A stretch of 64,000 bases of DNA from Psammoneis japonica (GCA_008632985.1 QPGO01000001.1:652404-716403); one strand, 5' to 3'. Shown: positions 10,646-48,446, numbered from the stretch's first letter. Made by a program: numbers and translations. Notes: generated by a model from the letters alone, not told the origin.

Positions 10646-12870
10646 TCAACGCCATGGAAGGAACGCGTCTTTCCCTCCCCAAGCCTTGGCGGCATTGCTG
10701 GAGATGCTTTTCTCCTCACCGTTGGAGTTGTTGGACCATTCTGACTGAACAGACATGCTCTTGTTGTCAGACCCTTTTTGGGTGCCGCATGTGCCATCCT
10801 CTTTGTCTGGGTTCTGAGTGCATTTTCCAATGACAGCATCCTTGAGTTGAAATGCCAGGGTGGTCAAGTTGCAGATTTTGTCATCGGCCATTCGCAGCTT
10901 CTGCTTGATGGTCTCTGTTGTTGCTGCAGTTGCAGTGGAGGTAACTGACAAGTTGTTCTCCTCATCAATGTGATTCTTTTCCTTTGGTTTCTTTTTCTGT
11001 TTCTGTTTGAGTGGAATGTGTGCAGCCTTGCCTTTTTGTGCACTCCAGGCTGAGGCCATCACATCCTCATCCATGCTGCCTTCCCCTGGCATGGCTGGGT
11101 TGCTGGGATTTTCTGGTGCTTCTGGCAAGTTCTCCATTGGTTTGCTGTCCTTCAGTGATGTGGACGTCCTCTTGAGATTTTCAAAGTTGCAGCCATCATC
11201 CTCAAAGTCTTTGAGCATGAGATTGGCCCCAGGATGAGCGGCCTTGTGCTTCTCTTCACTGCATCCGGCTTCCTCCATTTTGGCAACATGTGATGGAAGA
11301 AAGAACCTTTCCATGTTCTTGTTGCATTTGCAGTGCAAGTTAGAAGAAGTGTCCCAAAGGGATGGCTGACTCACTCCAGCTCTCTAGGTGGGACCTCGCA
11401 CTGCTGCACTGTGACGTCAACAGTTTTTTTGATCACGTCACATGTCGGGCACGCACATTTCTACGTGCTCACATTCTACGAAATTGTTTCATGCTCCCTG
11501 TTTTGCGAAGCCAAAGGCTTTCTATTTTCAACATTTGTGAGAGTGAAAATGCACTGGGCATGTTCTTCAATGTCTGTAGAACACACCCGGGAAAACTGTT
11601 GATGATGTGCTCCAAGCATGAAGGAGGAGATGCGTTCGTAAAATTGCCTCTTTTTCTGTTGGCGATCATTTGTGTTTTCATTGCACAGTGTAAATTTGCT
11701 GTGGAGCTCACACGCAGAATTCTGCAGGCCCAATGTCACATGGAGTCCCACCCAGGACTGGAACCCATCGGCTTCAGACTCAACTTGAGGGTGGCAGATG
11801 GCAACAACCTTGCCTCCCCTGGACTTTGGATGTGTTCTGACTTCCATGTGTTGAGGGACCTGGGGTTTGTTGGGCAGTTTGATCTCCATTGTCATCTCAC
11901 AAAGTGTCAATCCCGACTTCTGATTGATGACATCCCATGCCTGCACGTTGTTGAGTGTGAGAGTCTTTGCATGCTTCAAATGAGCTTGTTTTGCCTGATC
12001 ACTCCTTTTTCCACTGGGGTCAGTTTCTGTGGAGCTTGTGCATTGTGAGCATTTGGGCATGAGTCTGGTGGATGTCTTGAGTGGGCAGTTTGTGTTGGAT
12101 TTTGCAAACATCTTCTGGAGCACAGGCCAAGCTTCATCGGCATCATTGGAGTTGATGTTGATGCAGCAGGCTTTGGGCTGGGGATGTTCTTCCATTGCAT
12201 TGGCTGGTTTGGTTGCTTTCTCAGCTTGTGGCTCTGCCGGCTTGCCCAGTTGCTTGCCGATCTTTTTCTCCAGCCTGGCTGGGTTGATCTCATCTGACAT
12301 CATCATCAGCCACCTGCAGGTCTTGGCGCACTTGTTGCCCTGCAGAACTTTGGGCTTGAGGAATGCATTGAATGAGTCCTTGAGGGTGAACCTGATGGCC
12401 TCAACCAGTTCTTTGGGTTGGATGTTGATTCCCTGGCGCATGTCAACCCAGTTGTCTCTTTCCACATTCAGCCTCAGACAGTGGAGATGAGTGTCAATTT
12501 GTGCAAAAGGGAGCTTCTGGAATTGGGTCTTGAATGTGCCATCTTTCTGGGTGATGGGTCCATCTTTTGCATCACCCATCCAGGTTGAAACTGCAACACT
12601 GTCTCCGGTTGGTTTGCACTTGTGGTCGATGATTGTTCCAAATTTCCTGCCTGGCGTCTTTTCTGCATTTTCTTCTTTGTTCTTCTTGGTGACCTTGGAT
12701 GGCTTGAAAGTGAAGCAAATGAAGTGTTTGGTGGTTGTTGGGAGCAATGGAGGGAGTGACGGCAGCATTGACAGAGGCGATGCTGGAGGGAGTGGCTGCC
12801 CCGCTCCTTCAGCATTGATTGTGGAAGGGCCAGGTTGTCTTGCAACAAATGACCATTCACAATGACCATT
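10646..12870 (-). pseudogene. Decayed ORF, probably ORF1 of a diatom non-LTR retrotransposon, interrupted by a MITE
   Basis: ORFs 11476-12768 and 10646-11374 flank the MITE at 11368-11769. Motifs ...CPLKTSTRLMP...LTLCEMTMEI resemble diatom LINE ORF1. TpA-depleted. Confidence 0.5.
11368..11769 (-). mobile_element. GAC-family MITE, subfamily B, intermediate age
   Basis: TIRs; TSD GGCT at 11364-11367 and 11770-11773; homologous to 26227-26622. Confidence 0.9.
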
Positions 12871-13139
12871 TTTGTTTTTGCTGTTGCCAGCTCCTGACTT
12901 GTGTCAATGGCCAACTTCAGTTTTCTTCCTCTTCTTCACCATGATGCACTGGAGATTTGAGTGGAAAACGTGCACTCTGAGAGGGATGGTGTGGATGAGA
13001 TGGATGAGATCAAAGAGGACATTTTTTGTGGCTTGCTCAGCAAAATTAAATGTCTGGTGTCTGCAGAAACAGGGCATGTTTGGACGTCAGTTGAGCCAAA
13101 GCAGATCAAAAACACGAGCTCCAAAACCTGAAAAACATT

Positions 13140-13140
<1 letters not shown>

Positions 13141-13197
<57 letters not shown>
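13141..13197. repeat. (CA)n microsatellite, about 28 units
   Basis: Directly visible. Confidence 0.98.
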
Positions 13198-13198
<1 letters not shown>

Positions 13199-14060: not shown

Positions 14061-14546
14061 CTTGCAGCCTGCTCCAGCCTCACAATGTCACTTGGGATGC
14101 TGAATCACCAGAATGGATGGGTTTGATCACAAGGGAGGAAGATGGAGAGGCAAACATGAATGAATTGTGCACAAAAGTGTGGCATTTCGGTGACATCCAA
14201 GCACAAAAGTTTCTGGTAGTTTTCTGGAGTTTCTCTTCAAATCTTAAGCTTCAAGTGGCATAATCTTAGGGACTAGTCAAGCATTTACTACTAGTCAAAC
14301 TATCACAAAAATCGTCCAAATACTTACAATCAACGACAAGAGGCCATCCGGAGTCGTTTTTCGAGTTTTTTTTTCTCGAGCGAGTCGTTGGAGGAGTCAG
14401 TCGAAAAAATGCCTTTCTTTTCCGCGCGGGGGCACCTGTGTGCAAGGGATAATGGCAGCAGCAGTGAGAGTAGAAATAACTAGCTGCTGCAACTAGAATA
14501 GTTTCTGCAGTGGTGGCAAGAGGCATCGCCACGTAATGGATTCACT

Positions 14547-15923
14547 CTAATACAAGCTCGAGAAAACTGATGTTTTGGATGCTTCATCAGAAGGAATAAT
14601 TACGTCATCAGGGTAGTCTCCTGTTTCTGGAATTTCAGGCGGCTCAGCTTCTGCCATCATCTGGAAACGGAAGTATCGAGTCCAGTTAATAGAAGACTTG
14701 AAAGCAAGCAGCAACGGGTCTGGGTACGCTGCGATGACGTCTTCACCTTGAGGGGTCATCGTCGCAAGATCAATCTTCGCCGCAATCTTTCCTTCTGGAC
14801 GCTCTGCTCTTGGAATTGGCACCAAGATTCTGCCTCGAAGGTTGTCCTCTGGGCGGGGGTGCATCACCGCAGCTGAGGTGAGTCGAGTCGTTTCAAGTTC
14901 GACACGGAATTTTCTCCAAAGCGCAGCACCCGCTCCACCATCAGGCCCGTTTTTGTGTTCCAAGCAAAAGGCTGATGCTTTTATCACGTGACGCAAAAGT
15001 GAGGCTGATTTTCCAATGTCACCAGTATTTGCATCTTGAATTAGGTTCCGGCTCGTCGACGTTAGACCAATCCTGCTTGCAATGGCTTGAGCGCTGGCTT
15101 TTCCGGCAACATCGTTACACATGATGATAATCTCGTATGGGCCACCATTCCAGTTCCGGGCTTGGTCAGCTTCCATCACTGGCAACACAACAACACCAGG
15201 TTTCTTATCAAACCACTCCTCCTGCTCCAAAAATGACAGCAAATTGAAGGGTGACCGATTTATCCCGGAGGCCGGCGTTACGGATGAATATCCTTCTCTG
15301 ACACTCCCACAGACTGCTTTGCAGAGAGCAAACCTGTCTTGTTGAGTCTCGGATGGCATTCCGAGCACAGCAGCAGCTGCATACATCCAAGTATAGGCTT
15401 TTTTAATTTCACCGTTTTTGGGACATAAATGCGCCTTGTCCGCAAAGTTTGCCGTCTCGTCAAACGAGCACAATCGCACAGGTGTCAAGCCGTTGACCAG
15501 CATTCGATTTGAGCTTTTGGAAATACTTGTGGACAAGTCGAGGGCTTCTCGTCTGGTGGTGTTGAAGACAGTCGCAACATTGGTATCAAGAGCCGTTCTC
15601 TGCCCAATGAAAGCCTCCCAATTTCGTGATATCGTGGAAAAGTCGGCTTCCGAAAATGTCACCCACTCACTGTCCAACAGTTCCACCATTTTGCAATATG
15701 ATGATCCGGAAGTGACTCTTATCGATTCGGTAGAGAAAGCTAATATTCCTGCCAGAAGGACTGGCTCGTACACCGTTCCAAGAGTCAAAGATTCAGCCAG
15801 TCGTTGCTGAACAGAAACCACATCTTCGTCTCCGGCTTCCAAAGCTATCAGCAATGCAGACAAATCCAAAGGCTCGTGTTCGTGTTGCTGGTTCTCTTCG
15901 TCTGTGGTGTTGAAGTTCGACAT
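14547..15923 (-). CDS. Putative HNH-type endonuclease domain protein, 458 aa, intronless
   Basis: Open 1377-bp ORF with normal Tyr and TpA content. C...DKAHLCPK...INRSPFNLLSF...EEWFDKK...YPDPLLLAFKS fits the HNH_2/CR-effector-type nuclease pattern. Confidence 0.75.
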   Translation of the reverse strand: MSNFNTTDEENQQHEHEPLDLSALLIALEAGDEDVVSVQQRLAESLTLGTVYEPVLLAGILAFSTESIRVTSGSSYCKMVELLDSEWVTFSEADFSTISRNWEAFIGQRTALDTNVATVFNTTRREALDLSTSISKSSNRMLVNGLTPVRLCSFDETANFADKAHLCPKNGEIKKAYTWMYAAAAVLGMPSETQQDRFALCKAVCGSVREGYSSVTPASGINRSPFNLLSFLEQEEWFDKKPGVVVLPVMEADQARNWNGGPYEIIIMCNDVAGKASAQAIASRIGLTSTSRNLIQDANTGDIGKSASLLRHVIKASAFCLEHKNGPDGGAGAALWRKFRVELETTRLTSAAVMHPRPEDNLRGRILVPIPRAERPEGKIAAKIDLATMTPQGEDVIAAYPDPLLLAFKSSINWTRYFRFQMMAEAEPPEIPETGDYPDDVIIPSDEASKTSVFSSLY

Positions 15924-17029
15924 TTAGTAGAGCAAAGGCTCAGCGATGTAGGCAGGATCAGGATGCCTGATTCAAGTATTGAAGCGGCCAGAAGAAACAC
16001 AAACGCCGACCATCACAGATCACAGTCGGTCGTCAGTGAGTGTTGGGAAAGTTCACTCCGTGCGTGAAAGTTCTAGGGCCCTACCGGTACGTGAGAGTTG
16101 TAAAGTAATAGCTCGAATAATTCGATTAAATATTGTTGATTTTTGCTTGTCCGTCATCCGTCATCCGCGTTCTCCGTGCTTTTTGAGTGGGAAAAAAAAG
16201 CCGTCGACCATGATGAACGTGCTGTTCCGAGGTCGTCAATATAATAGTCTCTCTTGTCCCCAATAGAAGGACACTGTGTGGCGATTCCTCCTCAAATTTT
16301 TGATTTGAGTGATGTTTCTTACATTTTGCTGACTCACACAGCACATTCGCCTGCTGCCGTTGCCGCCGACAGAGTGCGAATGCACCCAAGACCTCACCAG
16401 CAGAGGTGCATGACACCATTGACTCCTTCATCGAACGATTTAATGAAGGAGTGTTGAATGGTTTCATCCCTGGAAATTCGTTCTGGCTTGTGACACAAGC
16501 CAGAACTTTTGTGTCACGATGCAAAGAGCAAGAGACGCACTTTCCCCGATGCCCTCCATTTTTCCAAGTTCTTAAAAATCGACGATGAATCATTTCTCAA
16601 AGCATGTGGGCAGCAGACCATGAAAAGCATTGAAGCCAAACACAGTCAACTAAAGACTGGTGACATTCATGGTGCAACTGTGTGGTCTCAATCACTTCAA
16701 AGCTGCTGCAGTGTCAAAGTCATCATGTGAGACTGCTGACGAAGAGAATCGGGTTCCTTTTGACAACGTAGAAGTCGGAAGTGCATGCAGGTCATCAAAC
16801 GATTCACACATTGATTTCTCTGCTCATTGTTCTTCTGGTGAATGTGCTGATGTGGGGCAACATGAGGACTCGAGAGTCAGCACTCGAGTCTCGGATGCAC
16901 GACAGCCAGGGAGCATGATGCCACCAATGAAAACGAGGTGAAGCTAGCTTCAGATGACAGAAGAATTGGTTTTGCATCCCCGCTCTATTTTATGACTTGA
17001 TTGTCATCCAACAGGTTGGACAAACAGGT

Positions 17030-17892: not shown

Positions 17893-18168
17893 TGACAGGA
17901 TTTGAACAGGATTTGGGTGCGCGCGAAGTGTCGCGCGCTGTTTAGTTTACCGCGCACAGTTTTGTGTGCTTTGGTTCCGCACGTTCACGCGCGATGCAGT
18001 TTGCTTTCGAGCCACAAGGCTCACAAGGACAACAACAGCAGCCCGATTGTGCCAACTCACACGTCTTTCGGCTCCTGCAACGGTCTCTGAGCGGAGACTC
18101 ATCTGCCATTTAGACAGCAGTGAGGAGTTGTTGTTTGAATTCTTGCCATTTGCCTTCAATTTCTGTCA
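17893..18168 (+). repeat. 5' LTR of E2
   Basis: Matches the 3' LTR apart from ~18 substitutions. Confidence 0.96.
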
Positions 18169-18707
18169 GATTGACAGTCTTGCTCATTGTCAACCCATTG
18201 AGCAACCGCCATTGTCGTCGTTGATTTACCAACGATGCCATTTCAATCCCACGTGGACCTCCGCACATGTTCTACATACATCGGCAAGTCTGCGCGCATT
18301 CAATGCCAGGGCATCGGCAGGAAGTTAACGTCACCGTCAAGTCTCCTTGCCGCTGGACATCTGGATTGATTGTGCTGCCTTTGATCGCTGAAGACATGCA
18401 TTCAACGGTCACATCCAAGTCCATCCTTGATCAACATCCCTTGACACACCTGTTCCTCGGTTGACGGTCAAGAACCCTGCACATTCAAGGATCTCAGTCG
18501 CTGAAGACATGCACGCATGCACACATCTTCACGGCCAAGAACCTTTGCCCACTCTTCGGACTGCGGTTTTGCTGCCACTCTGCGAGCACACCGAGTCCAT
18601 TGCACCTGATCTACCCCGGACCACTGGTGCTCTACAGTTCCACCAGGTCCACGAGGACGACTGTGAGAGCAAGTGGCCGTGATTGCAGCCTGCGTTGGGG
18701 CGAGGGT

Positions 18708-19097
18708 GACGCGTTCCAGCCCCAGGTGGGACTCCGTGTGACATTGGGCCCGTAGAATTCTACGTGCGAGCTCCGTAGTACGAGAATTTAATTAATGGAC
18801 ACATTTGTCTTCAACATCAAATAAACGGCCAAGTTTGTGGTGCAATTATGCCTCTTACCACTCGACGTTTTTGCAACTTCGCCTGCCCTACGCGATTCTT
18901 AAGACATTGTAGAATCGCGCTGTAACAAAAAATGTCAAAAGTTGTTGGACGGATCACTCAATAAGTGCACCGTAAAATGACACAAAATGTCAAAAAAATC
19001 ACGTAGAAATCTACGTGCGCGACATACGACGAGACTCAAAAAACTGTCGATGTCACAGTTCAGCAGTACGAGGTCCCACCTAGACCTGGAACGCGTC
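18708..19097 (+). mobile_element. GAC-family MITE, subfamily A, young, inserted in the E2 5' UTR
   Basis: 390 bp; TIR GACGCGTTCCAG-N-AGGTGGGAC; TSD GGGT. The empty site is visible in the related element E3 near 29840-29860. Confidence 0.95.
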
Positions 19098-19501
19098 GGG
19101 TGCTTTCCCGCGTTTGTTCGTTCGTCCACAGCGCCTAACGCCTACGTCAACTGGCCAGCCTGATCGGGAAATCCAACCGACATAAAAACAAGAACGGTTC
19201 GGGGGTCTTGTCCACCTCTGGTCAGCTCACCTGCAGGGGTTTACAACCCGCCACTCGCTCGCAAGCAACCCAAAGCGCCGCTGGCTGCGGGTTCGGACGT
19301 GCCGGCACAACTCCACGGACCGGACAGGAAGTTCAGCACTTGACAACGAACGGGACAGCAAAGCCCGGCGACTTCTGATTTTAAGACAGTTCAAGATTTC
19401 AAGTCAAGTCTGTTTCAAGTCAAGTCCATTCTCACCCAAGTTTCGAGTCTGCCTTCGCTTCCCAACCAGAATTGATTGTCCTGACACCACTTTTGTCCAC
19501 C

Positions 19502-22500
19502 ATGGTTCTCACTCGTCAGCAACAAACCGATGGTTTCGAGCACGTTGTTGGAACCGTGCTTGCCCAAGGTGCTGGGAGTCCTCTTCGTTTGGCTTTGGCC
19601 CAAGACGGCACGGACTCGCATCAGGAACCATTCACGTTCATGCCGTCCCAAATCGACTCGCTTGAGTGCGACAACGGCACTGATGTGATCCCTTTGCCCC
19701 GTGGTTATAAGAACATGTTAGCAGCACCAGTTGGTCTGCACATTGTCAAAGCACACAAAGGTCTTGACGTTGCCAACGACTCCTCTTTGTTCGCGCATGA
19801 CGAGTTCCTTGCCCACCGCCTCAGCCCCGACTGCATGTCTTCTGTGTCCATCGGCAGCTCACCCCTTGCACCTCCGCATGTCACCAACCCGACCAAGGCA
19901 CGCGACCCGGTGCGGGACTTCAAGCGAGGCATCAAGCATGATCCAACCGCTTTCACGGCTCTCAAATCCGACAAGCAGTGGCACACTTGGCACACCTCAC
20001 TTGTGGCACAAGCCCGTGCCCAAGACGTCGAGTGCATTCTAGACTCGTCGTACAAACCGACCAGCCCCGAAGACAAACTGCTCTTTGCTGAACAGCAAAA
20101 GCACATGTTCGCCGTCTTCGAACGCATCCTTCTCACCGACAAGGGCAAGGCTCTCATTCGCGAAAATGTGGGGTCTTCTGACGCACAGACCGTCTGCCGC
20201 GCCTTGTCTGAGCACGCGCTTGCCTCCACCCGCGCATCCATCGAGTCCTCCACCCTGCTCACGTGCCTCACCACCGCAAGTCTTGGTGATGGTGCTTGGA
20301 AAGGTCCGACCCACGGGTTCATCCTTCATTGGCAAGATCAGTTGCGCAAGTGCGAGGCACTCATCCCGGCCAGTGACCACTTCTCTGAAGGACAGAAGCG
20401 CGTGATGCTCGAGAATGCCGTGCACCCTGTCGAGGAACTCCGTGCTGTCAAGAACCAAGCTGATCAGCATCGCACGCAAAGTGGCAAGAGCCTCACACAC
20501 GATCAATGCTGTGGCTTGCTCCTCTCCGCGGCAGCTCAGCACGACAGTGCGTTTCAACCCAAGACGACACCTCGAGCTCCCCGACGTGCCACATGCGCAC
20601 ACGACGTCCACTCCGAGGAACCGTCCGACAATGTGTTCTACGACATTGACAGCGACATTGACGTCCTTCAGGCCAATGCTGCCTGCACCCGCGGTCCCAG
20701 CCTCACCGGTGACCAATGGAGACGTCTCCCTCCCGACCACCAACGGATCTGGGATTCGTTGCCCGATTCCTCCAAGGCGATCATCCTTGAGCATTCTCGC
20801 CCGCCTCCCCGCAACCCGCGAGCCAGCAACTGCCATGAGTCTGTTGCGGCCAACCTTCACGACCAACGCCTTGGGAGTGACGGTGATGTCAACTTGTCCA
20901 ACACGACTCCTGCTGACTCTGGTGACTCCGCTCCAAATGTGGGTGCCACTTCGGACAATCCCATCCTGGCGCACCTCACCAAGCGCAAGCCACTGCCACC
21001 CGGTGATCTGCAATGTCTGTTGTCTCCTAACCAAGCCCCCAATGCCAGTCGACCGGGGCCATCCGCCGCTCCCTCTACCCCGCCAGCTTCTGCAGATGAC
21101 ACAGAACTTAACGGCCGCACTTGCCGCCGCGTTGACAACCACAATGTCATTTGCTCTGCCTCTGCTCATCGCTCCACCCGCACTGGTGCTCCAGTCGATC
21201 GTGGGGCCAACGGCGGCATTGCTGGCGACGACGTTCGCGTCATTGCACGCACCTCTCGCCAAGTCGATGTTCAGGGCATTGACGATCATCAATTGGTGGA
21301 CATTCCTGTTGTCACCGCTGGTGCCGTCATTGAGACCCAGCGTGGTCCCGTCATCGCCATCCTCCATCAGTGCGCATGCACGGGCAAGGGCAAGACCATC
21401 CATTCCTGCGGCCAGCTCGAATGGCACAAACAGGATGTCAACGATCGCTCTGTCAAGGTGCCCAACGGCTTGCAGCGCATTGCCACTCCTGATGGCTATG
21501 TCATCCCCATTGACATCAAGGCCGGCCTGCCTTGTGTTGCCATGCGACCTTACACTGACACCGAATGGGACACCCTGCCCCATGTCATCCTCACCGGTGA
21601 TGACACATGGGACCCTTCCGTCCTCGATCACTCTGTCACTGACGACGACCAGTGGTGTGACGCGATCTCTGACCCACAGGACGATCCCACTGCCAACCCA
21701 TTTGACGAATGCGGCAACTGCCGTCATCGTGTCGTTGTCAACAAGACCATCATGTCCGCTTCCTTGTCTGCCGATCACGCGTCCGCCCTCGATGATCACC
21801 TCATTCTGAACGACGACGTGTTCTGCGAGTGTCATCTACATGCGATTGACCCCAAGGGCGATGACGTTCCGCCTCCGGAGCGCACTGTACAGCCCAAGGA
21901 CCCCCCCTTCGAGTCTCTTCGGCCTCACTTTGGCTTCCCACCTGCCGATGCGGTCCGTCGCACTTTTGACTGCACCACGCAGTGCGCCCGCATGCCCGCC
22001 GGCACACACCTTGGGAAGGCCTGCAAATCACCCAACCCCGCCCTTAATGTGCACCGCCGCAACGAGCCTGTCGCCACTGACACCGTTTGTGCCGACACCC
22101 CGGCCGTCGACTCTGGCTGCACCAGCGCCCAACTGTTTGTTGGCACCGAGTCCACCGTCACTGACGTCTGCGGCACTGAGACGGACAAAGAGTTTGTCAA
22201 CACACTCGAGGATCAGATCCATGAACGTGGTGCCCCATCCAAACTCATTAGCGACCGTGCTCAAGTTGAGATCAGCAACAAAGTGCTTGGGATCCTACGC
22301 GCCCTCTTCATCTCCAGCTGGCAAAGTGAGCCTCACCAGCAACACCAAAACTTTGCCGAGCGTCGACACCAGACCGTGAAGCGCATGGCGAACACTGTCA
22401 TGGATCGTTTTGGTTCGCCCGCCCACACATGGCTGCTGGCGCTCATGTGCGTGTGCTTCACACTCAACCACACAGCGTCCCCACGTCTCCACTGGCGCAC

Positions 22501-26622: not shown

Positions 26623-26629
26623 GGCACTG

Positions 26630-34758: not shown

Positions 34759-35075
34759 GTGCACACGAACCACCTGGTGGTCCGTGTGCATTTTTGGGTG
34801 CACACGAACCACCTGGTGGTTCGTGTGCACCCTGCGCAAAATGCTGCGTAGATTTGCACCGAATTAAATCTGAATGCCTACATCTGCAGCAGGCTCTACG
34901 TGAAAACGCACTCGAAACAGTGTCCACCGAGCCGGCAGTCATGTGCCGGAACGTCGTGAAAAGTATTTTATGTCTGAGAAAGAGTTCGTCAGGGCCGGCG
35001 AACAACACCCCTCTACGATGCGGCTGGTATAAAATGTACGTAAATGCACAGGAACCAGCATGTGGTTCGTGTGCA
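34759..35075. repeat. Three copies of a ~31-37-bp palindrome (TGCACACGAACCACC-T-GGTGGTTCGTGTGCA)
   Basis: 34759-34790 (one internal mismatch), 34796-34832 (perfect 18-bp arms), 35045-35075 (degenerate). Confidence 0.9.
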
Positions 35076-35444
35076 AATTAGAGCTCGTGAAAAATAAGCA
35101 GGGATATAGGAGGTATTGCTGTGTCGTTCCTAATCTATGTAGAAATTTATCTATCGCCGAAAAAGCTCATTATTGTATATGATATGAATGTGTATAATTG
35201 GATAATTTGATTATTTATAAACCTAAATCCATTTCAATGTTTTGTATATAACCCAAAATACAATTCAATGCTTTACTATCATTTGCTTTTTCGGCGAAAA
35301 AGTAATGTATAAATTAAAATACGTATAAAAACACTAATGGATTTTATGAAAACACTTTTCTGACTTCCACTTACAGTATGGTCGAGAGTGATTCCCGCAA
35401 GTACGAGAAATCCACGTAAACCAAGAGTACACAACTTCACGACG

Positions 35445-36461: not shown

Positions 36462-37168
36462 AATCTCGACCGGCAATGCAGAGGTTTTATGACATCTAGA
36501 TAGGAATCCGAGCAGCAGCTACTCGGATAATCTAATAGAACACAAACCGGTCGTCAGTGCCCAACGCAAACTTGCAATGCCCGGAGATCGCGAGATTGGT
36601 TTGTTTCCGGGTCTGTACTTTACGGATGGTTCAGAATCCGAATCCAGGATGGCCCCGATTGTCAAACCACTCGTTGTTTTATCAAGCACCAGGAATGGAA
36701 CACGAAGGAATTTGTTTATGGGTGTTTTCTTCGGTATTCGGCTTGCCGTTTGGTTGTCTTACTCCTTCCGAAATGTGTGATACAAGTAGCAACAACAAAT
36801 ACTTTTGAATTAGCAGTTTAAAAGCTGCAACCTTCTTACGATATATCTAAAGTGCCGCCAAAAGAACTCCTCAATTTTCAACGAATTCAAAGATACGTCC
36901 TCCGGCGTCTTAATTGATGGTAGCCACAGCAACTGCCAGTGGGTGGACGGTGCGCCCTTTCATCATACCATACATTCTGGGGGAAGAAGTTTTGGGGTCA
37001 GCCCTCTCGTAGTCCCTAGCTAACACCTGTTGAAAGACAACAAAACTGAGTATATTTCTCTACATTATGGGCATTTTTTCGCGTAGAGTGAGAATTCCAT
37101 TGTGCCGCCTGTGTATCTTGAGCTTTGATCATGGGTTCTTATGCTGAACCTCTTCCATTTACGAGTAA

Positions 37169-37672
37169 TCAACATTTGTTTTGACCTCGCTTTACCAACA
37201 CTACCCGCCACAAAGTTTGACCACTCTGCAAACTTTGATTGAATTGGTTCAAAGTCTTGCCCGCCTTGTGTCCAAGGCCGTGTGAGACGGTTCCGTCTTC
37301 AATTTTGGATTGGGCCGAAAAGAACTTGTCAATCATTTCTTTCTGACATTGAAACTCTACAACTGTTGTTGGAGTCGTGTCGACAAATTTGTTGGTTCGC
37401 AGATACTTTTCGCAGTATTCACGACCTTCAAGTCCTCGAGTTAACGTTTGGTAGGGTTGAGTGTTTGGAAGTTGATTGTTTTCCCAAAGAAAAGAAAACT
37501 CCACGTCACCCATGTGCCGATAGCACAATACAGTGTTGTCCGTAGCGTCTCCACTCGGCGCTAACAGCCACCGCGAGGAAGCTCCCGAATGCGTAATGTC
37601 AAGAAGCTCTCCACGCGAGAGTAGGTCCTCTTCGTGAGTTAAGAGCTTTACTTTTGCCTTTTTGCGTTTCAT
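37169..37672 (-). CDS. Small hypothetical protein (167 aa), possibly ADP-ribosyltransferase-like fold
   Basis: Intact ORF in a TpA-normal island; CYRHMGDVE...QPYQTL...YCEKYL...TTVVEF pattern. Confidence 0.7.
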   Translation of the reverse strand: MKRKKAKVKLLTHEEDLLSRGELLDITHSGASSRWLLAPSGDATDNTVLCYRHMGDVEFSFLWENNQLPNTQPYQTLTRGLEGREYCEKYLRTNKFVDTTPTTVVEFQCQKEMIDKFFSAQSKIEDGTVSHGLGHKAGKTLNQFNQSLQSGQTLWRVVLVKRGQNKC

Positions 37673-39064
37673 CAGTCAATGCTTGTGTGCCGCCAACTCA
37701 GCTGTGCAATGAATGATTCTTGAAAAAGAAATAATGTTGTGTCTGTTTTCTCGATTCTCGATGCGAGCAGAATGGTCCACGTCTGGACGCGACACTAAAA
37801 AGATGATGAAGTCGACCGCCCCCGCGCAGCAGCCGAATGGTCCACGTCTGAACTCTGGACGCGCGACCCTCTCTCGCCCTTCAGTCATTTGGCTCGCGAA
37901 GAATGCAAGACTGATTCGCTTTCAGCCATTTGGCTCATGAAGAATTGCGGCTCATCCGAAGAGCTTTGATTCTGACATTCAACACTGCAAGGTGTCCATG
38001 TCTGTGTTTTGCACAGAAATCCAAGACAAGGGGTCATCACATCGTTGTGGAGAGACAGGCAAAACTGACAATCTGAAATCACGATTTTTGTTGGTCAGTG
38101 TTTGAACACACATCATCCGGTCATTTGCAAAGTTCATTTGTGGAACCACAAACAAATCAAGTCATGGCATTCTGTCAAAGGTCATCATTCATCACAAGTC
38201 AGTCATTGGTCTCATCCTTGCCAGACGACAGACCATCACACAAGAGAAAAAATGAGAGAAAAAATGTCGGAGGTGCGTCATGTTGCTCCCGCTGTCTTTT
38301 CATTGTGCACTTGCCACTCTCCACTGCTCTCTCTTTGTTGCCTGGATGCAGCTCATTCAGGTTTTGCCTCCCCTGCTGGGCCCATCAAAATCAAAAAAAA
38401 ATGCAAAGTTTTTGGGCAAAAAGCTGGCGGCAAGTGCAGGCGAGCTTTTTTTGCACAGTGGCCACGCAGCCACGCTGGCACAGGGGAGCTGCAAAAGTTG
38501 CATTGGGCCAAGGCAGTGTGCAAGCAAAAATGCTGTAAGCTGCTTCTGTTTGCAAGAGAAAGAGAGGAGGGAAAGGCACAAAAAAACCATGCTGTCAAGC
38601 AACAAGAAGAGAGCCACAGGACAAAGCTTTTGCACGGCGAAGGGGCAGAGCAAGCCCCCTGCAACTTGCACCCAAGGGTCTGTTGTGCCAGCCACCACAA
38701 AGCCAAATGCATGAACAGCTCACATTTGTCAAAGGCACAAAAGCACAAGTCAGCTTCAATGCTGTGACAATCTGTGTTGGGTGTTGCAGATTTAGAGTTG
38801 CGCTGGTCATTTAAATTCCCCAAACCCACCCTGCATCATCAACTGTGGTGCTGTTGGGTTGCTGGGGAATGTTCACTCACATGAACAAATCATGCTGCAA
38901 CAAGGTTGCACCATCAGCAGAGGTGGCCAAAAATGGGCTGGTGAGACCTGGCAAAACACTGTCTGAAAAGAGCAACATCAGTGGGAGAGGGGGTGTGCAG
39001 AAACACACACAGAGGCTGAGGGTGAGCAGCTGACATCAACAAGTGACAAAAAGACACAAAGCAA

Positions 39065-39293
39065 TCTTTGGCCAGATTTGTGCATTCTTCAGACATTGAA
39101 GCATGCAACTGACCTGTTTTTGTTCTTGTGATTTTGTCAAATAAAGTGTCTGGGGTTTTGCAAAACAGCAAGTCTGGAACAATTTTTTGAAATGTCACAC
39201 ACGGAAATGTTTGTGCAAAACATGCTGCAGATGATAAAAATTGTTGTGTCACACGTCAGCACTGCCAGCTCCCACCTGGGCCTGGAATGCATC
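39065..39293 (+). mobile_element. Old partial GAC-family MITE (subfamily B-like right half)
   Basis: cattcttcagacattgaag...ctcccacctgggcctggaatgcatc aligns with 26405-26622. Confidence 0.7.
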
Positions 39294-40661
39294 TGCAACA
39301 ATCAGTGGTTGCATTTGAAGTGTTCAGGCAAGCCCTGTGGAAGTCTGAACATTTGCTTTGTTCTGGTGATTTCAGAAACAAAATTGGAGCCAGCAGGAAG
39401 AGGACTGCACCCACTTTGCAAGGAGACATGTGCAAGATGTTCTTGAAGAACTGTGGAGAAAATGATGCAGATTCAAGAGAAGGCAGAGCAGACCAGCCCC
39501 TGTGCAGCATGCATTTTTGTGAAGGGAGTTGACTGGCAAAGAAGACGACTTGCAGTCCCGGCTTGTCTAAAACCAGCTCCAAACACAAATCTCAACAAGA
39601 ACAAAGAAGTTTCCCAGGGGCAACTGATGTGCGGATGGCCCTCAAGCAAGCCACAAGAAATGCGTGCATTGGCAGCATGCAGAAAACTCACTGCTCCAAA
39701 TGCACTGAGCTTGGAAGATGAGTCAGTGTTGTTTGCTGACAAGCTGGCTGCTCTGGATTGGGAATGACTTGCCGCTGCAACATTTGTGCTGCTTCAGCAT
39801 GCAAAAGATCATTGCAGGCAAGGCATTGGTCAGACTGCACGAGTCAGCTGAATGCCTGTCTCTGTCAAGGTTTTTGAAATGACTGGCTCTCAGATCTGTC
39901 AAAAAATGCTTGCAGGACTTTGATGTTCTGCATTCAAATCAGACTTGCAAGCAAGAAGTCACATTTTTCAAAGGTGTCATTGGAGATTGGCTAACACGGA
40001 GATGGAAGAAATCAAATCTGTGGAAACATTCAAGGCTGTTGTCAATGCGGAGGTCAACAAAGAGGAAATTGTGAGCAAATCTGCTTCAACCTCAAGGCAT
40101 GATGAAAAGGATTGCTTTTTTTGCCACCACAGGGTGGCAAGCTTCTGAAATCATTGAGTCAGCAAGAGGAAATCAAGGCAGCCGCTGCTTGCCAGATTCT
40201 TGTCTCAAACAAGCATTGAGTCAGCAAGAGGAAATCAAGGCAGCCACTGCTTGCCAGATTCTTGTCTTAAACAAGCAATTTACATCACAGCACCAAAAAT
40301 CAAACAATGTTCACTGGCAATGTTTGTCATTGACAAATGCACACATTCCACTTGCAGTCTGCCTGAGAATGATCTGTGGTCAGTCACAAACAAGCCACGC
40401 ACATGTCAATTGCCTGATTTGCGGGACACATGTCAAGAAAGTTGCCAAAGGACAAAAGACACAAGAGAAACAAGACAAAACAAGCTGGCAGGAGCCAACA
40501 CATTGCCTGAAGCAGCAGATGCAGCAGGCAATGGTGCCAGATTTTGTGACATTGCCGATGGTGTCATGGAAGGCAAGTCATTCTTTTGAGCACCGGCATG
40601 CTTGACATGGATGTGGGCAAGGTCGATGGCATTGTGGACGGCATTGTGGATGGCATTGATG

Positions 40662-42720
40662 TCAGCTTTGTGCTGTTTCTGATGGTCTGACAGGACAGAA
40701 CCCTGAGGTTGCCACATGCAAGTCCATCGTGATGGCAAACAACAGGATGGCCATTGTCATCCAGAGCCATGGCCACATGTTTGCTGGCTTTAAAAAGATC
40801 ACTTGTGTTGACAGTTGTGTCTTTTTTTCACCTTGGCAGCTGCCATCTCTGCACAGCAACAGCTTGAGAACCCCACCAGGAAATGATTGGCAGTGTCTGA
40901 CAACAGGATTGCCATTGGCATTCAGAGCAAAAGACTGGTGCAGTGCAAGAATGCTTGTCCCATTGCCTGCCACAGCTGCAATGGTGTTCCCACTCTGGCA
41001 GTTGACATTGCCGCAATGCAGCACCTTGACAGTGAACATGTCAGTGCAACTTAAAACAGGACAGCCAATGGTGTCCAAGGCGATTGAAAGGCCCCTGCTG
41101 GCTGCAACATTGTCCACTGCCTCAATGGAATTCCCCATCTGGCAATTTGCATCACCGCAATGCAAAATTTTGAGACCAGTGTCTGTGCAGCAGCCCACAA
41201 CAGGAAAGCCATTGGAATCAAGTTTGAGGGATGTGCCACATGACACATTTTTGTCAACTGCTGCACTGTTCTTATTTTGGCAATTTGCATCACTGCAATG
41301 AAGGACCTTGAGAGTTGAGTTGCTTCCATTGCCATGGCTCAACACTGGAAAGCCAGATGAGTCCAATGCAAGTGATGTGCCAAAACCAACATTGATTGTC
41401 TCAATGGTGTCATTGCTTTGGCAGTTTGCATCCCCACAGTGCACAAGCCTGACAGTTCCACCATCATGACAGCTCACGACTGGAAAGCCTTGTTCATCCA
41501 GTGCAATGGAGGTGTCCTTCCAGGCACTTGCTGGGGGGATGCATCAAGTCATCTTGCAATGGTGCAGCCAGAGTCTTGGCAGTGCAAATCCACACAGTGC
41601 AATGCCGCCATGAGCCTGCTTCTGACATTTGGTTCACTTGCATGGCAGATTGCTGTGGGGAATCCATTTGCATCCAAAGCAAGAACCAATGCACCACTTC
41701 CAGAAATGGCACGGTTGACATTGCCAGCATCACAAATGGTTGCAATCATTGCAAGTGCATCCAAGAAGAATGGATTTTGTTGAACAACAGGACATTCAGG
41801 GAGCTCACACTGGGAAACACATGACAGACAGGTCAGAAACTGGTCTCCACAGTTGCTGCAAGAAGGACAGGATGTGAGGCCCTCACAAGTTTTGTCATCA
41901 AAATCAGTGCAAGCCAAAATGTCAGTGTTCCAAAAGGTGGCAACACAATCCTCACATTCTGTTTCATCATTTTCAGGGCCACCCAGACAAGCACAGAAGA
42001 CTTCTTGTTCTTTTTGGTTCTTGTTGTTGGCGCAGGAGTTGGATGGCCTGGTCCAAATGAGCATCCATCCGATTGCAGCATTTCAGCACAAATGCCTTGA
42101 ATGTCATTGTTGGCACATGGTTCACCAGTGTTGCAGTTGGAGAAACAAATCGGGCCATCTCCAGCACCAGGTTGCAGGGTGGTTGGAGGGAAGCATCAAG
42201 CTGTGCCGGATCGACTGTTGTCTTTGGCATCAGGCCAAAGGAGCACCAATGTGATTCCCATTCCCACAATGCTGCCACTTTCCACAGTGCAAGAAAAGAC
42301 ATCTTTGGGTGCCTCTGTGGTCACAACCAGGGCCAGACCTGTTGTCAAGTCAATGAGGCCATTCCTGGCAACGCAGTCCACTGAGAGCCCAGCTGCTCTG
42401 TTGCACTGCAAAGTGCTGCCACCTGTCAAAGAGCAACTTGTTGCATCACTTGATTTGAGCAGGATGAGATTGGCACCGCAAGAAATGGTGGCAACCGCAG
42501 GATCAGGTGCTGCACTGTTGGTGGTGTCACTGGCAATTGCACCAAGACTGATGTGGTGTTGTTGCCAAGGAAACTCCTGTTCATTGCTTTGAATGTTTTG
42601 CATGCTCATCAGGTCATGCTTTCTTGTGACTTGCTCAAGAGCACCCACTGCAAAGGTCAACTTTTGTGCAGGTGCAGCAGGAAGGGACAAAGATGTCAGA
42701 GCCAGAAGAAGAACCTTCAT
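40662..42720 (-). pseudogene. Decayed secreted-protein gene: signal peptide, Cys-rich domain and ~6-7 'LALDxxGxPVxS...LKxLHCxDxNC' repeats
   Basis: MKVLLLALTSLSLPAAPAQ starts at 42720. The repeats are visible in ORFs 40662-41477 and 41549-42064. Frameshifted and Tyr-free. Confidence 0.7.
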
Positions 42721-45700
42721 GGTTGAAGTGTTGCAAGGAGTGAAGTTGATGGTGATCTCCAGATCACAATGTTGCAGCTCATCATTGGCACGCGGCATGG
42801 GGCATCTGGGATTTTGGGTTCTGATTTCATCAACAGCAGTTTTTGGATGAAACAGTGCAGCGTCACATGACATGATGTGACAATGTTGGCAGGCCTGCAG
42901 TTTTGCACAACCTGTTGCCGGTGTCCAGTCAGCTGAGTGAGCACTCTTCTTGTGACCTTCATCAGCTTTCAGGGTTTTGGCTGGCACCACAGCCCATCAA
43001 AAAAATGCAATCTGAGCTGTCTTTGCCAAAAAAGTGGCCAATTGTGCACCACAAAACAAGGTGCAAAGCCAGTTTGGAATGGATGCCATTTGTTCTTTTC
43101 CATGGATGAACCAAGCCTGACACAAGTGCTGGAATGATGTTTGTTCATGCTTGAGATGGAAAAGTGTGTGCCAATCAGTGCAACGTGGGCCAACTTGGCA
43201 CTGCCAACAACTTTTTTCGAAGCAACAATTGTGCACAGCATGTGCCAGCTGCAAAAATTGTTTTTTTCTCCATTGCACATGCAGCTGATGCAGGGCCACT
43301 TTGCGACACAGATCAAAGACAGATGGATGGATCAACAGGCAGGAGAAAGTGGTCTGCACCTCCCTGCTCTCACAGGGGGGTTCACTCATGAACTGCTTGC
43401 TTTCGCGCCAGCTGAGCTGCCACGGAAGCAGCACTGCATGCTGCAAGCACCCACAATGAGCCACAGGTGTGTTGCTCTTTCTCTTCATCAATGTTTTGTT
43501 GCACGTTGATGAGTGGAGAGCAAGTTTTGCTTGCAGCCCACACACCTTTGCGGCTCTCCAGCTCAGCAGAAGCCTCCTTTTCCAGGTTTCCCACAGAAGC
43601 AAGCTTCCCTTGAGGTCTGGATCCTCATGGCTTGTGCCACAACATCCAGAGAGCTCTGTGGGGAGAGCATCAAAAACAAGAGAAAAGCAGGTGTCAAGCA
43701 ACAGAGAGCAAGAATTGCCCAGCGATTGTGCTGTGCAGATCAGAGACTCTTGCTGACATGAGAAAGGGTGGTCTGTGCCCCTCTCCTTGCTCACACAGAG
43801 GGGTTTTTCACTTTTGGGTGCATCTGCACCAAGAAGTGTTCAAACCTGCCCAGGGTCTGGGGTGTGCTTTGCTTGCATCTGCACACAGGAAGCATGGCTG
43901 GAAACCTGCATTGAGCCTCTTTTGTCCCACAACACTTGCATGCAAGGAGCACAGCGCGACTTACATTTTTGTCACACGAGTGCATGGTGGACACCAAAAT
44001 GTCCATCAAATCATCATTTGAAGACCCAATGACCCAAGATTGACAGCAACAAGAGAAGGTTGTTTTTGGAGAGTGAGATGGACCACAACATCCATGATGA
44101 TGGATGCTGGGTGGTGGCGATGGACTTCCATCAGATCTTCTTCTTTGCTTTTTGTGCAGCACTTGGTGGTCATTGCTCAAAAACATGAAAACAACAGAGC
44201 TCCTCTGACGGCAGTTGACAGATTGAGCTTGCAATCAAGCTGTGAGCCAAAATGGAGAGGGTCTGGAGCTGCACTCTCAAATGTGCTTGCTGGAAATGCC
44301 CAGGCAGCTGAACTCTGAGTGACCCTTGGAATGACTTTCGGGCGCTCTTTTCAACAAGAGCTCTTGACAGAAACCAGAGCCCTCAATTCACAGCAAAGTT
44401 CTTCTTTTGTTCATGTTGCACACCATCTGTGTGACCCACAGATGAATCATTTGGGTCCCAAGAGTCATCACGTAGAAATTGTGCAGGAGAGTGCCAAAAA
44501 AAGTTGTCAGTCTGTCCATCCATCCGTGTGTGAATGTCAACTTCTCAGGAAATCAATTAAAATGCCATCTGGACGACGGCATTTTGATTCACATGGTGAA
44601 GGCCACCACTGTTGATCAGATGGCATTTCAGTGCAGTTCCCAAAAGCCACTGGCTCCAATCACTCTCTTGCATGACATTGTGCACATTTCCACACCATTT
44701 TGTGTTTTTCCTCATGTGAAATGCCAACTGTGACTTGTGCAACATTTTTGAGTGATTCCTGTTTTTGTTGTTGGTGGTGTCTCTCTGCACATGCTGGTGT
44801 GGGGTGAGCACAGCCACTGGCAACAAGTTGAGTGGCAAGCTCTGAAGCTCAGCACTCTTTTTTATGTCATCACAGTGTGACCCAGGCTCCACCCAACACC
44901 TGCCAAGGGAGGAGCTCCAGCTTTTGTTTTGGCACCACTTGCCACCAGGGCTTCATCCCATGTGTGACAGGAAAAGCTTGCCCACAACAAAAGACACAAA
45001 TGACCAAGCCAGTTCTAAATTTCAAGTGTGCTGCCACTCCGTTGCCAGCTGCGCTCGCTGGCCCACACTTCCAGTGCACCAGCCAGCATGGCAAAAGATT
45101 GCAAGGGTTGGCCACAGTTGGCGCCACCTTGTGGTGACATGCCTGAGGCAACTGGAAACAATGAGCTGACCAGCCACAGTGTTTGCTGCTTTCTGCTTGA
45201 CTGGAGCCACATCTGCCACACCACAACAGCAAAGGATGATTGAACTCAGAACTTGGTTCAAGAGCTGCACAAGAAATGAGGCTGAAGCATGGACTCCAAA
45301 CCACAAACTTGCACTCATCAAAAAGAGACCCAACTTCACACCACAAGCACTGCAACAACAGCAGAACAACAGCTGGATGTGCCAGCAAGCAAGGGAGGGG
45401 GTTGTCTGGAGCTGGGAGGCAAAAGAGACCACAGCACACAATCTTGTGACAAGTCAGTCATTGGAAGAAACATTTTCTCATGCAGAAACAACACCAGAGC
45501 TCTTGCAGAAATGTCAGTGCACACAGCAGGTGGACTTGCTTTCACACTTGCATGCGCCACAATGGATGCAGGACTTTTGCCATGCAGAGTGAAGCCCTTG
45601 ACAGGCCAGCGGGGAGAGAAAAGATTTTTTGAGCACAGACGGGCATGGATGAAAGCAGTTCTGAGATTCAACTGCACCACAGTTGGTGGACATTTCAGAA

Positions 45701-48056
45701 GCATGAACATTTGTGCTGAAGCTTGCACAGAAACTGTGGAGTTGGCAGAAAATTGCAAAAAAATTGACAGGCTTGCAAGCCACAAGGTGTTGATGCCAGT
45801 TGTCTTCCACAGGAAAATGTTGTTCATCATGCTGCAACATGGGAGCATCATTGGTGGTGGCCAAAATTGGCTGGTGAGACCCAGCAAAACACCATCTGAG
45901 AAGAGCAACATCAGTGAGAGAGGGTGCACAGAAATGCACACAGAGGCTGAGGGTGGCTCGAACACAACAATCAATGTCATTTTGAGTGACAAAGAATTGA
46001 TGCAACTCAGAAATGTCATCTGGAAGAGCTTTGTTCATTGGAGAAAGAAGTGGAAAGAGATTCTCCTTGTTGGTGAGTCACATGTCACAGTGGATTTGAG
46101 CACATTCAAACAATTGTTGCAGGACAAAACACAGTTTCAGACCTGACCAGCACCCAGATGGTCTTTGTACATTTGCTTGATGGGGTCAATGGATTCAGCA
46201 CTGAGGTGAGGGTTTTTCTGGTGGAAGATGTTTTGCATGATTGCAGTGCTCATGTCAACCACTTCCAAACTGGAGGCAGCACCCAAAAGCATTGCATTTG
46301 ATGTGAACATTTTGCCCTCAGGTTTCTTTGTCACTGCGGTTGATTTGCATGTTTGGACAAGTCAAGGTCAGCTCTTGCAACCTTGGCTTCTGTTTTGTTC
46401 CAACAGTGGTCATCTCTGATTGAGGTCTTGTGACACTTGGCAGAGTGGCCAGAGTCATTGGCATGAAGTGTTTGATTTTGATCAGACTTGTGTGTGTTCT
46501 CAAGGTGGGATTGTTCCACCCCCGCTGTCAGCTGTTATCATGAAGCTGTTGGTTGGTGCATGCATCATGGCAGCATTCCAGAGTGATTCTGCCAACATCA
46601 TGTGCATTGCATTCCACCAGGGTCAGCACATCACAGGTGTTTGATGGTTCACAGCCAATGCCACAATTGTTGTTGTCAGGGGAAGGCAAGGATGCATTGT
46701 TGCTGTTGCCATCAACTTTTTGTCTTGAACATCAAAGACATCACAACATGATCCCCACCTTAAAGGGGAAGCAATGCATCATCCTTGCTGTCACAATTGT
46801 TGCCATTGGCATCAGCAATCAAAGATGTCATGGCTGCTGGACAGACAGCACCCCCAGCTCTGAGTGGCAGGGTGGTGGTGGTGGTTTGGCTGCTTTGTGA
46901 GATGGCATGGCACAACATCTGTGGTTTGGAAACAAAATTGGTGGGCAGATGACAAATTTGATGTGGTGTGGTGTGACTTCTTTGCCTGACTTGTGTTGAC
47001 TTGTGTTGAATCTGCCCAGTTGTGCAAAATTGAGTGTGCACAGCTGTCGTGAAAAAGCACATCAACACTGTCCGCATCTGTGCAGCACCATCAACTCACA
47101 AGAATCTCATGAAGACAGAAAAGACTTTTTGACTCATTTGTGCTTGTTGTGTCCACAAATGCACAATTTGTTTCATTGTCAATTTTGTTTTCTGCCAATT
47201 TGTCATTGACAATTGAATGTTTTGTTGTCATTTTAAGTCGCCGTTGTGGCACAATTTATTCTCATTTTAAAATCACCAATGACACAATCATTTGCCACCA
47301 CCTGTTCTTTCCATTTCTCAGCTGTCTGCCTTTGTTTTGCTCTGTGTGTGCTGCTTTTCCTTCATTTTGCGTGAGTGGCTTGAAACTGCACAACTCATCC
47401 TCCAATCTCACATCCACCAATGACAGTGGCACACCCCTGCCACAATCCACTCTGTCCTGGTTGGATGTCTGACAACAACAACAACAACAACAAGCATGCT
47501 CTTTGCAGACATTTTCAAAGGTGTCCCCAGTGTTCTTCTTTTTCTTTCACTGTTTTGGCCTGAACAATGAACCTCCCTCCCCCAACAGCTTCCTTGGCAT
47601 CAATGTGGCCTTGTGCTCTTCAGGATGTCTCAATCATTCTCTTGACTCAAGCGCCAATGGATTTGCACCCCTCTCCCTGCTTGATGGGGATCATTTGTGT
47701 TTGGCTCTCCTTTTTTTGCTTCATCCTGTCACCAATCCAGAATTTCAATTGCTCCCAATGAACAAGGTGACAATTGCTTGTTTGACAATGACGCCATTTC
47801 CCATCACCCAACTGTGACGGATGAAGTCAGCATCAGCTCCATGGCTCAACCACCCATGTTTGCTTCCTCAGCCAACCCATTGGCTCTCATTTGCCTTCAT
47901 CATGAACTTCCTCCATGACAAAGCCACTTCCCCTTTGCCACAGCCAGACCTCCAACACCTCACCACCTGCCTCACTGACAAGCAAACACAAAGCACCCTC
48001 TTCTGCAAATGCTCCATCTCCTCCATTGCTCATCTCCTGTCAGCTGATGCATGCCA

Positions 48057-48446
48057 GATGCACCCCAGGTCCATGTGGGACCTTGCACTGCTGAACTGTG
48101 TCATCAACAGTTTTTTGAATCACATTGTGTGTCGCACCCGCAGATTTCAATGTGATTTTTTTGATGTTTTGTGTCATTTTACGGCACACTTGTTGAGCAA
48201 TCCATCCAACAACTTTTTGCATTTTTTGTCACAGTGCAATTCCACAATGTCTTAAGAATTGTGCAGGGCAGGTGCATTTGCAAACACGTTGAGTGGCAAG
48301 AGGCACAATTGCACCACAAACTTGGCAGTTTGTTTGATGTTGAAGATGAACACATCCGTCAATTAAAAATCTGTGCTGCGGAGCTTGCATGAAGAATTCT
48401 GCGGGCCCAACTTCACACGGAGTCCCACCCAGGGCTGGAACGCATC
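48057..48446 (-). mobile_element. GAC-family MITE, subfamily A, old
   Basis: 390 bp; TSD GCCA; colinear with the reverse complement of 33054-33443. Confidence 0.9.

Follow-up and report, generated by a model that had tools for sequence, protein, structure and literature searches.

The window analysed here is a 64,000-bp stretch of the genome of the diatom Psammoneis japonica (GCA_008632985.1 QPGO01000001.1:652404-716403), and positions are counted from its first letter. It holds eleven copies or fragments of a short element, which were collected by blastn, two alignments and an nhmmer profile search. The subject of this study is the loss of the dinucleotide TpA (TA) from these copies and from the DNA around them. 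The six full-length copies measure 390 to 404 bp, all six carry the inverted termini GACGCGTTCCAG.../...CTGGAACGCGTC, and each stands between identical direct repeats of 4 bp, indicating that the element ends given in the initial annotation were exact. From its inverted termini, 4-bp target-site duplications (TSDs), small size and high copy number, the element is predicted to be a miniature inverted-repeat transposable element (MITE). Every position at which the annotation had placed a copy was found to contain one by blastn, the alignments and nhmmer. The nhmmer search added an eleventh, old fragment at 56478 to 56652 (minus strand), which was absent from the annotation and has no TA and a CG observed/expected ratio (o/e) of 0.10.

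Five copies belong to subfamily B. The copy at 26227 to 26622 (plus strand; TSD, GGCA) is unconverted, with a TA o/e of 0.97 (33 found versus 33.9 expected) and a CG o/e of 1.02, and there is no TA in the 500 bp on each side of it. The other four are converted. Two are full length, at 11368 to 11769 (minus strand; TA o/e, 0.25, 7 versus 27.8; CG o/e, 0.59; TSD, AGCC) and 31605 to 32008 (plus strand; TA o/e, 0.11; CG o/e, 0.65; TSD, CTGA). Two are fragments, at 4007 to 4164 (minus strand; 0 of 9.7 expected TA; CG o/e, 0.41) and 39065 to 39293 (plus strand; TA o/e, 0.10; CG o/e, 0.20). These values agree with the descriptions of 26227 as very TA-rich and of 31605, 4007 and 39065 as almost fully converted. 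In subfamily A, two young copies are located at 18708 to 19097 (plus strand; TA o/e, 0.71; CG o/e, 1.37; TSD, GGGT), inside a copia retrotransposon, and at 33054 to 33443 (plus strand; TA o/e, 0.81; CG o/e, 1.48; TSD, TGCC). The old, converted copy at 48057 to 48446 (minus strand; TA o/e, 0.10; CG o/e, 0.45; TSD, TGGC) keeps 3 TA and 9 CG compared with 18 to 21 and 27 to 29 in the young pair, and has indeed lost most of both. A converted A fragment at 6638 to 6838 (minus strand; TA o/e, 0.07; CG o/e, 0.84) and a converted A-like fragment at 10461 to 10640 (minus strand; TA o/e, 0.24; CG o/e, 0.21) complete the set.

The abundance of the family was estimated from contigs of one sample (run X1) aligned to positions 32750 to 33750. 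The alignment contained 3,623 contigs, and the depth over the MITE was 95,000 to 500,000, compared with about 60 to 70 for single contigs. By identity, 552 contigs matched at 99% or above, 932 at 95 to 99%, 1,459 at 90 to 95% and 680 below 90%. The depth and the near-identical contigs imply a family of thousands of copies in several sub-lineages that was recently active. Several contigs bridge 33042 to 33444 with a single TGCC and represent paralogous empty sites. The flanks of the copy at 33054 (32750 to 33050 and 33450 to 33750) are present in some tens of copies, with a word depth of about 3,000 to 5,000 versus 60 to 70. None of the depleted DNA could be recognised as clearly single copy; the flanks to which reads were aligned are themselves repeats. 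Matches of metagenomes to the degenerate inverted-repeat pattern (118 loci, one match each) showed no further likeness by blastn and were set aside as chance.

TA depletion: domains, direction and rate

The window as a whole has a TA o/e of 0.178, a CG o/e of 0.54 and CA and TG o/e values of about 1.6. A two-state segmentation on its 13,433 TA, CA and TG sites assigned 54,011 bp (84%) to depleted DNA and 9,923 bp to normal DNA. The depleted domains have TA o/e values of 0.04 to 0.12 and CG o/e values of 0.24 to 0.83. Normal DNA is found in four gene islands, with TA o/e values of 0.5 to 0.7 and sharp borders, and in the three TA-rich MITEs with at most about 150 bp of adjoining flank. The depletion is thus regional, the gene islands keep normal TA, and the gene of one island is intact.

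The flanks of every MITE copy are TA depleted (o/e, 0 to 0.21), and no copy lies in TA-normal DNA of the window. The copy at 26227 has 33 TA, while its flanks have none in 2 x 500 bp, and it was therefore inserted after the flanks had been edited and has been untouched since. The TA-rich copies arrived late, in DNA from which TA had already been removed. The initial annotation had proposed that the process acts on repeats as short as 390 bp. This does not follow from the copies of the window, since all of them lie in depleted flanks, where action on the element and action on the domain are inseparable.

The copia element around the copy at 18708 (copia copy 2, 17893 to 24951, plus strand) has long terminal repeats (LTRs) at 17893 to 18169 and 24675 to 24951 and an open frame at 19385 to 24727 (RVT_2). 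Its TA o/e is 0.12, yet its CG o/e is 0.83. A more diverged third copy, a relic at about 28360 to 30534 (minus strand), is 68 to 78% identical to copy 2. The related copia sequence 29968 to 29536 runs uninterrupted over the point where the MITE stands in copy 2, indicating that 18708 is an insertion, a TA-rich MITE inside a TA-poor copia as had been noted. Copia copy 1 (1 to 4006, plus strand), which is cut by the window start, differs from copy 2 by CA versus TG at 31 sites, and the two copies were converted independently.

The direction of the change was established as TA (and CG) to TG or CA by three independent lines of evidence. First, at 18 of 178 pyrimidine-purine sites in two three-copy MITE alignments, one copy reads CA where another reads TG, and single steps from CA or TG to TA are therefore insufficient. 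Second, the two LTRs of one element are identical at insertion. Those of copia copy 2 now differ at 12 pyrimidine-purine sites (5 CA versus TG, 4 TA versus TG or CA and 3 CG versus TG or CA) and at only 1 of 135 other columns. Third, the copia polyprotein was aligned with 20 homologues of about 65% identity, chosen by length (over 1,700 residues) from 119 listed hits. At the 39 columns with Tyr in at least 80% of the homologues, the window copia has Tyr at 7, Cys at 18, His at 11 and other residues at 3, so that 29 of the 39 are Cys or His. Other conserved residue types were kept in 78 to 98% of their columns (lowest, T at 32 of 41; H, 29 of 30; W, 22 of 23). The Tyr share is 0.62% in the window copia polyprotein and 3.85% in the homologues. 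A derivation of the TA-rich copies from TA-poor ancestors, which the initial annotation had put up as the case against its claim, is contradicted by all three lines.

The substitutions are specific. The LTR pair differs by 9 TA-type and 3 CG-type sites. The young A copies at 18708 and 33054 differ in 12 of 388 columns, corresponding to ten sites: 7 TA-type, 2 CG-type and 1 transversion. The annotation had described about ten differing sites, nearly all TA or CG, and this count bears it out. Eleven of the 12 columns fall in pyrimidine-purine steps (binomial P = 0.003), and TA-type sites differ at 7 of 25 compared with 1 of 196 other columns (P = 8e-7). Two of the 7 TA-type sites are CA versus TG, and one of these two is the CCAG/CTGG difference in the inverted repeat. 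Its proposed origin from CTAG is confirmed by the presence of CTAG in the copy at 26227 and in the element's own 3' inverted repeat. The private TA-type differences within this pair indicate that the process is partly recent. The CG-type changes come on top of this as a component of their own.

TA was not lost in proportion to general divergence, in agreement with the expectation of the annotation. Of about 16 ancestral TA sites that could be detected in the LTRs of copia copy 2, 3 are left in one LTR and 5 in the other at a divergence of 1 in 135 (0.7%) elsewhere, and the young MITE pair lost about 9 of 50 TA at 1 in 196 other differences. Roughly, the rate at TA exceeds that at other sites by a factor of 10^2 to 10^3, an order of magnitude only because the ordinary changes were single counts. 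CG is intermediate (3 of about 20 CG sites differ between the LTRs), giving the order TA >> CG >> other sites. The losses of TA and CG are uncoupled, with o/e values of 0.12 and 0.83, respectively, at 19244 to 26237 (young copia) and of 0.04 and 0.24 in the oldest depleted domain (37655 to 52144), which hosts the converted copies at 39065 and 48057. TA saturates early, at less than 1% ordinary divergence, and CpG decay is therefore the slower clock; CG and transversions are better clocks than TA.

TA content of the copies and flanking-base context

The initial annotation had read the MITE copies as a time series of TA erosion. The cumulative order of young and old copies stood as a coarse one. 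The series itself did not, as the TA values fall into two classes and are unrelated to CG within the TA-poor copies. Three copies are TA-rich (o/e, 0.71 to 0.97), eight are TA-poor (0 to 0.25), and none lies between (n = 11). Across the eleven copies, TA and CG were correlated (Spearman 0.69, P = 0.019), and among the eight TA-poor copies there was no relation (Spearman 0.25, P = 0.55). The distinction between a partly converted copy at 11368 and an almost fully converted one at 31605 was also not supported, as they kept 5 of 24 and 3 of 24 ancestral TA (Fisher P = 0.70). The TA content is thus close to a two-state marker that separates new from edited copies, and dating has to rely on CpG content and transversions. 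In practice, TA content should not be used as a linear clock.

Nor is 26227 an ancestor-like form of the other B copies, because it differs from them in 45 to 46 of 227 columns outside pyrimidine-purine steps; the copies at 11368 and 31605 differ from each other in 24. The copy at 26227 is a separate sub-lineage and hence not the unconverted state of 11368 or 31605.

At the 19 sites converted in both 11368 and 31605, the outcome was the same at 16 and different at 3, and the old A copies had different outcomes at 3 of 13 sites. The discordant sites indicate that some conversions were independent and occurred after the copies had separated. The concordance of 16 of 19 exceeds the 11 to 12 estimated under independence with the context rule described below (binomial P about 0.02), which hints that part of the conversions was inherited from an already converted source. 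The copies at 11368 and 31605 do not record erosion in place independently of each other.

The outcome of the conversion depended on the flanking base. A tally by eye over the converted MITEs, counting each site in each copy, gave GCAG from GTAG in 14 of 16 cases and CTGC from CTAC in 6 of 6, which is one rule read on two strands. Self-alignments of the window gave 111 unique converted sites, defined as TA in one copy and TG or CA in its partner with unchanged neighbours. At these sites the base 3' of the changed A was C over G at 22:5, C over A at 13:6, C over T at 7:1 and T over A at 10:1. After collapsing to 68 homologous clusters, pyrimidine exceeded purine 35:12 (P = 0.001) and C exceeded G 16:4. 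These results show that an A followed by a pyrimidine (5'-TAY-3', on either strand) was changed about three times as often as an A before a purine. Since TpA is self-complementary, the rule can equally be stated as a T preceded by a purine, and the attacked base may be the A or the T. With this bias, copies edited independently of one another come to look alike at the converted sites, and agreement between copies is no proof of shared ancestry. The TAY rule is new here; no flanking-base bias was found in the main text of the preprint on Bigelowiella natans discussed below, its figures and supplements lying outside that search.

Strand clustering within a copy, for which the annotation had suggested a check, was not found: the 31 CA-versus-TG sites of the copia copies form 13 runs (shuffle P = 0.25). 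The converted MITEs likewise had no one-strand excess, with TG:CA ratios of 6:2, 5:3 and 4:3 at self-complementary contexts.

A tetranucleotide contrast between depleted and normal bins (CTGC gain, 28.0 versus 19.9 for CCAC per 10,000) was weak, was confounded by CG-derived changes and a 5.5-kb baseline, and was not used for the rule. With the same reservation of a small baseline, the TA that survives in depleted bins is mostly TTAA (7.1 versus 27.4 per 10,000 in normal bins), and ATAT (0 versus 34.8) and ATAC/GTAT (0.2 versus 33.8) are nearly or fully absent.

Interpretation and related systems

We consider a regional process that converts TpA to TpG or CpA on all but the four gene islands, with MITEs inserting into the silent DNA, to be the best explanation, with a probability of roughly 0.68. 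It builds on the direction of the change, its site specificity, its regional limits, the insertion of MITEs after editing and the context bias. Diatom nuclear DNA outside the gene islands (54.0 of 64 kb) would undergo this mutation, with a slower CpG decay running beside it. The non-autonomous DNA transposon of about 390 bp, being very abundant, would keep inserting into the silent DNA. Copies arriving after local editing would appear as sharp TA-rich islands (26227, 18708 and 33054), and older copies, or copies from edited sources, would be as TA-poor as their surroundings. The agent may be an enzyme that works in silent chromatin while the cells grow vegetatively, possibly an adenine deaminase of the ADAT/TadA type as put forward for B. 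natans. Deamination of methylated C may account for the CpG loss.

Several points weigh against this explanation. The two-class picture is based on n = 11, and partial states exist (of 24 to 25 TA, about 6 are gone from 18708 and about 3 from 33054), which leaves room for a graded process. The eleven copies, out of thousands, come from one window and are a loose sample rather than a single lineage. Targeting of the domain and targeting of the element are not separable here, since no MITE lies in TA-normal DNA, and for the old copies, editing in place looks the same as inheritance from an edited source. The context rule was derived from partly related copies. In the Tyr codons of copia, the Cys:His ratio was 10:3 where only the coding strand has TAY and 8:8 where both strands have it, a trend as predicted by the rule that alone is not significant (Fisher P = 0.25). 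Finally, among the sites listed for the reads, most of the depth at 33335 and 33392 has TG where the copy at 33054 has TA. We read 33392 as a frequently converted site, since the unconverted B copy also has TA there. The opposite is seen at 33146, also among the sites listed, where the read majority has TA and both A copies of the window have CA; their shared CA possibly reflects common descent or chance.

The strongest alternative is a steady, ongoing erosion of each copy in place, in which the TA content dates the insertion and a lone 390-bp repeat is recognised. The span of TA o/e from 0.97 to 0, the 7 private TA-type differences of the young pair and the sites converted after separation (3 of 19 in 11368/31605 and 3 of 13 in the old A copies) are what it predicts, and CG is above the CG of the flanks in 5 of 8 converted copies. 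The difference in CG between MITE and flank is not significant, however (Wilcoxon P = 0.25), no TA o/e value falls between 0.25 and 0.71, 11368 and 31605 are indistinguishable (P = 0.70), the eight TA-poor copies lack a TA-CG relation (P = 0.55) and all copies lie within depleted domains. In addition, at similar divergence outside pyrimidine-purine steps (1 in 135 versus 1 in 196), TA lost was at least about 70 to 80% in the LTRs but 12 to 25% in the MITE pair. This explanation is therefore unlikely, with a real chance left to it.

Considerably less probable is a genome-wide neutral bias from TA to TG or CA without any targeting, with selection keeping the TA of genes and the TA-rich MITEs being merely young. 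It would account for the depletion of 84% of the window and for the TA-normal DNA, besides the young MITEs, being all genic. However, the normal islands reach about 330 to 340 bp past the reading frame at both ends, with TA o/e values of 0.5 to 0.7 and sharp borders, a rate about 100 times higher would also erase untranslated and silent TA in the islands, and the same signature is regional in B. natans according to the main text of the preprint. A sequencing or assembly artefact, with a modified base at the TA of silent chromatin being called as G or C, is very improbable: 97% of the sampled 31-letter words of 52000 to 56000, which includes depleted DNA, were present in run X1 contigs at a depth of about 60 to 70, as accurate reads would give, and each site of the paralogous copies has a fixed outcome. 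A reversed polarity resembling repeat-induced point mutation (RIP), with TA-poor ancestors and TA gained by C-to-T changes at CpA/TpG, has in its favour the read depth at 33335 and 33392 and is the least credible of all, given the 18 sites with CA and TG in different copies, the Cys or His that replaced Tyr in 29 of the 39 conserved columns, the absence of TA from 1 kb of flanks around 26227 and the TA majority at 33146.

RIP is known from Neurospora and other Pezizomycotina, where TpA is made from CpA in a premeiotic process triggered by duplication. As in RIP, repeated and mobile DNA here has accumulated many transitions at a single dinucleotide, genes have escaped them, and the process is plausibly a genome defence. 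The chemistry and direction are opposite, as TpA is destroyed here and no enrichment of TpA by C-to-T changes at CpA was observed; the target in B. natans, moreover, is single copy. The decay of CpG in methylated transposons is alike in that CG changes progressively to TG or CA in the same domains (CG o/e, from 0.83 to 0.24). It does not explain the TA loss, and TA goes first (copia TA o/e, 0.12; CG o/e, 0.83). ADAT and TadA edit an A preceded by U (U33-A34 in tRNA), their natural substrate being RNA. ADAR also favours a 5' U (as cited in 10.64898/2026.01.13.699255). These enzymes are similar in that a T or U precedes the edited A, and a C on the 3' side, as in the loop that TadA edits, would be consistent with the TAY preference, but they act on RNA in nature.

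The closest known system is the TpA hypermutation of giant-virus and virophage DNA in B. natans. The main text of the preprint describes A:T-to-G:C hypermutation at TpA only, which appeared de novo in 11 of the 15 mutation-accumulation lines (Mettrop et al., 10.64898/2026.01.13.699255). Mutations there occurred at about 6x10^-7 per site and generation, versus 3.5x10^-10 elsewhere, the target was a silent, single-copy viral insert, and an ADAT-like deaminase was proposed (10.64898/2026.01.13.699255). As far as that text goes, the two systems share changes almost only from TpA to TpG or CpA, at a rate orders of magnitude above background, in silent regions and with other DNA spared; an adenine deaminase is suspected. 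They differ in the host, which is a chlorarachniophyte there and a diatom (stramenopile) here, and in the targets, which here are retrotransposons, MITEs and spacer repeats over 84% of the 64-kb window. The depletion here is near saturation (TA o/e, 0.04 to 0.12), compared with 0.45 in the viral region given in the preprint text, and is accompanied by CpG decay and a TAY bias. De novo events were proven in B. natans, whereas our data are sequence comparisons. By analogy, the B. natans work supports a process that would be cumulative, vegetative and intermittently active. With a rate like that of B. natans, editing would appear on a neutral clock as a burst, which is the pattern of this window. 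Transposons are methylated in diatoms, many of which have RID-related DNMT4 genes of unknown function (PMC9998398), and the methylation fits the CpG component.

No description of TA erasure in diatoms was found in the literature searched. If silent DNA is edited from A:T to G:C at a single dinucleotide, fungal RIP would have a second counterpart of opposite chemistry, and the evidence so far is from one preprint and one alga. The window adds a process near saturation in a diatom, a group of major marine primary producers, and an abundant MITE family that provides copies before and after the change. The order of rates (TA >> CG >> other sites) and the TAY bias are usable quantities, and the latter is able to discriminate between candidate enzymes. 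More tentatively, and with the odds against it, the data may reflect a diatom DNA-editing defence that continuously converts TpA to TpG or CpA in silenced chromatin, edits any new insert there, down to 0.4 kb, quickly on the neutral clock and leaves TAY as the footprint of a nuclear ADAT/TadA-like deaminase. If this were true, the system would be common to a diatom and the rhizarian Bigelowiella and thus ancient within the SAR (stramenopiles, alveolates and Rhizaria) group, and its kinetics could be followed, as in a natural assay, in MITE families of thousands of dated copies.

Gene islands and tandem repeats

The four TA-normal gene islands of the segmentation are located at 14217 to 16265 (minus strand), 34849 to 37650, 52148 to 55066 and 57577 to 59066. 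The first contains an intact, single-exon open reading frame (ORF) at 14547 to 15923 (minus strand) that encodes a conserved diatom protein without a Pfam family. Its homologues are 40 to 76% identical; the nearest is at 76%, and the closest named one, from Epithemia clementina, is at 48%. A depleted call at 14730 to 15024 inside this gene was rejected as false, since the protein is conserved there and the homologues have no Tyr at those columns. An effect of 5-hydroxymethyluracil of the dinoflagellate type was abandoned after this diatom gene had been recognised in the window. In the second island, the ORF at 35364 to 36461 (plus strand) has an HNH_2 endonuclease domain (PF13391, E 5.5e-07) and could be a host gene or a gene of a young mobile element.

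Two tandem repeats adjoin MITE copies. A 156-bp unit is repeated three times at 26590 to 27060, starting inside or beside the 3' end of the copy at 26227 to 26622, and the repeat region has no TA. Directly after the fragment at 4007 to 4164, an array of about 23 units of about 50 bp extends from 4585 to 5863. It is TA depleted with a low GC content of 0.41 to 0.43, and its units differ mostly by CA, TG and CG alternatives.

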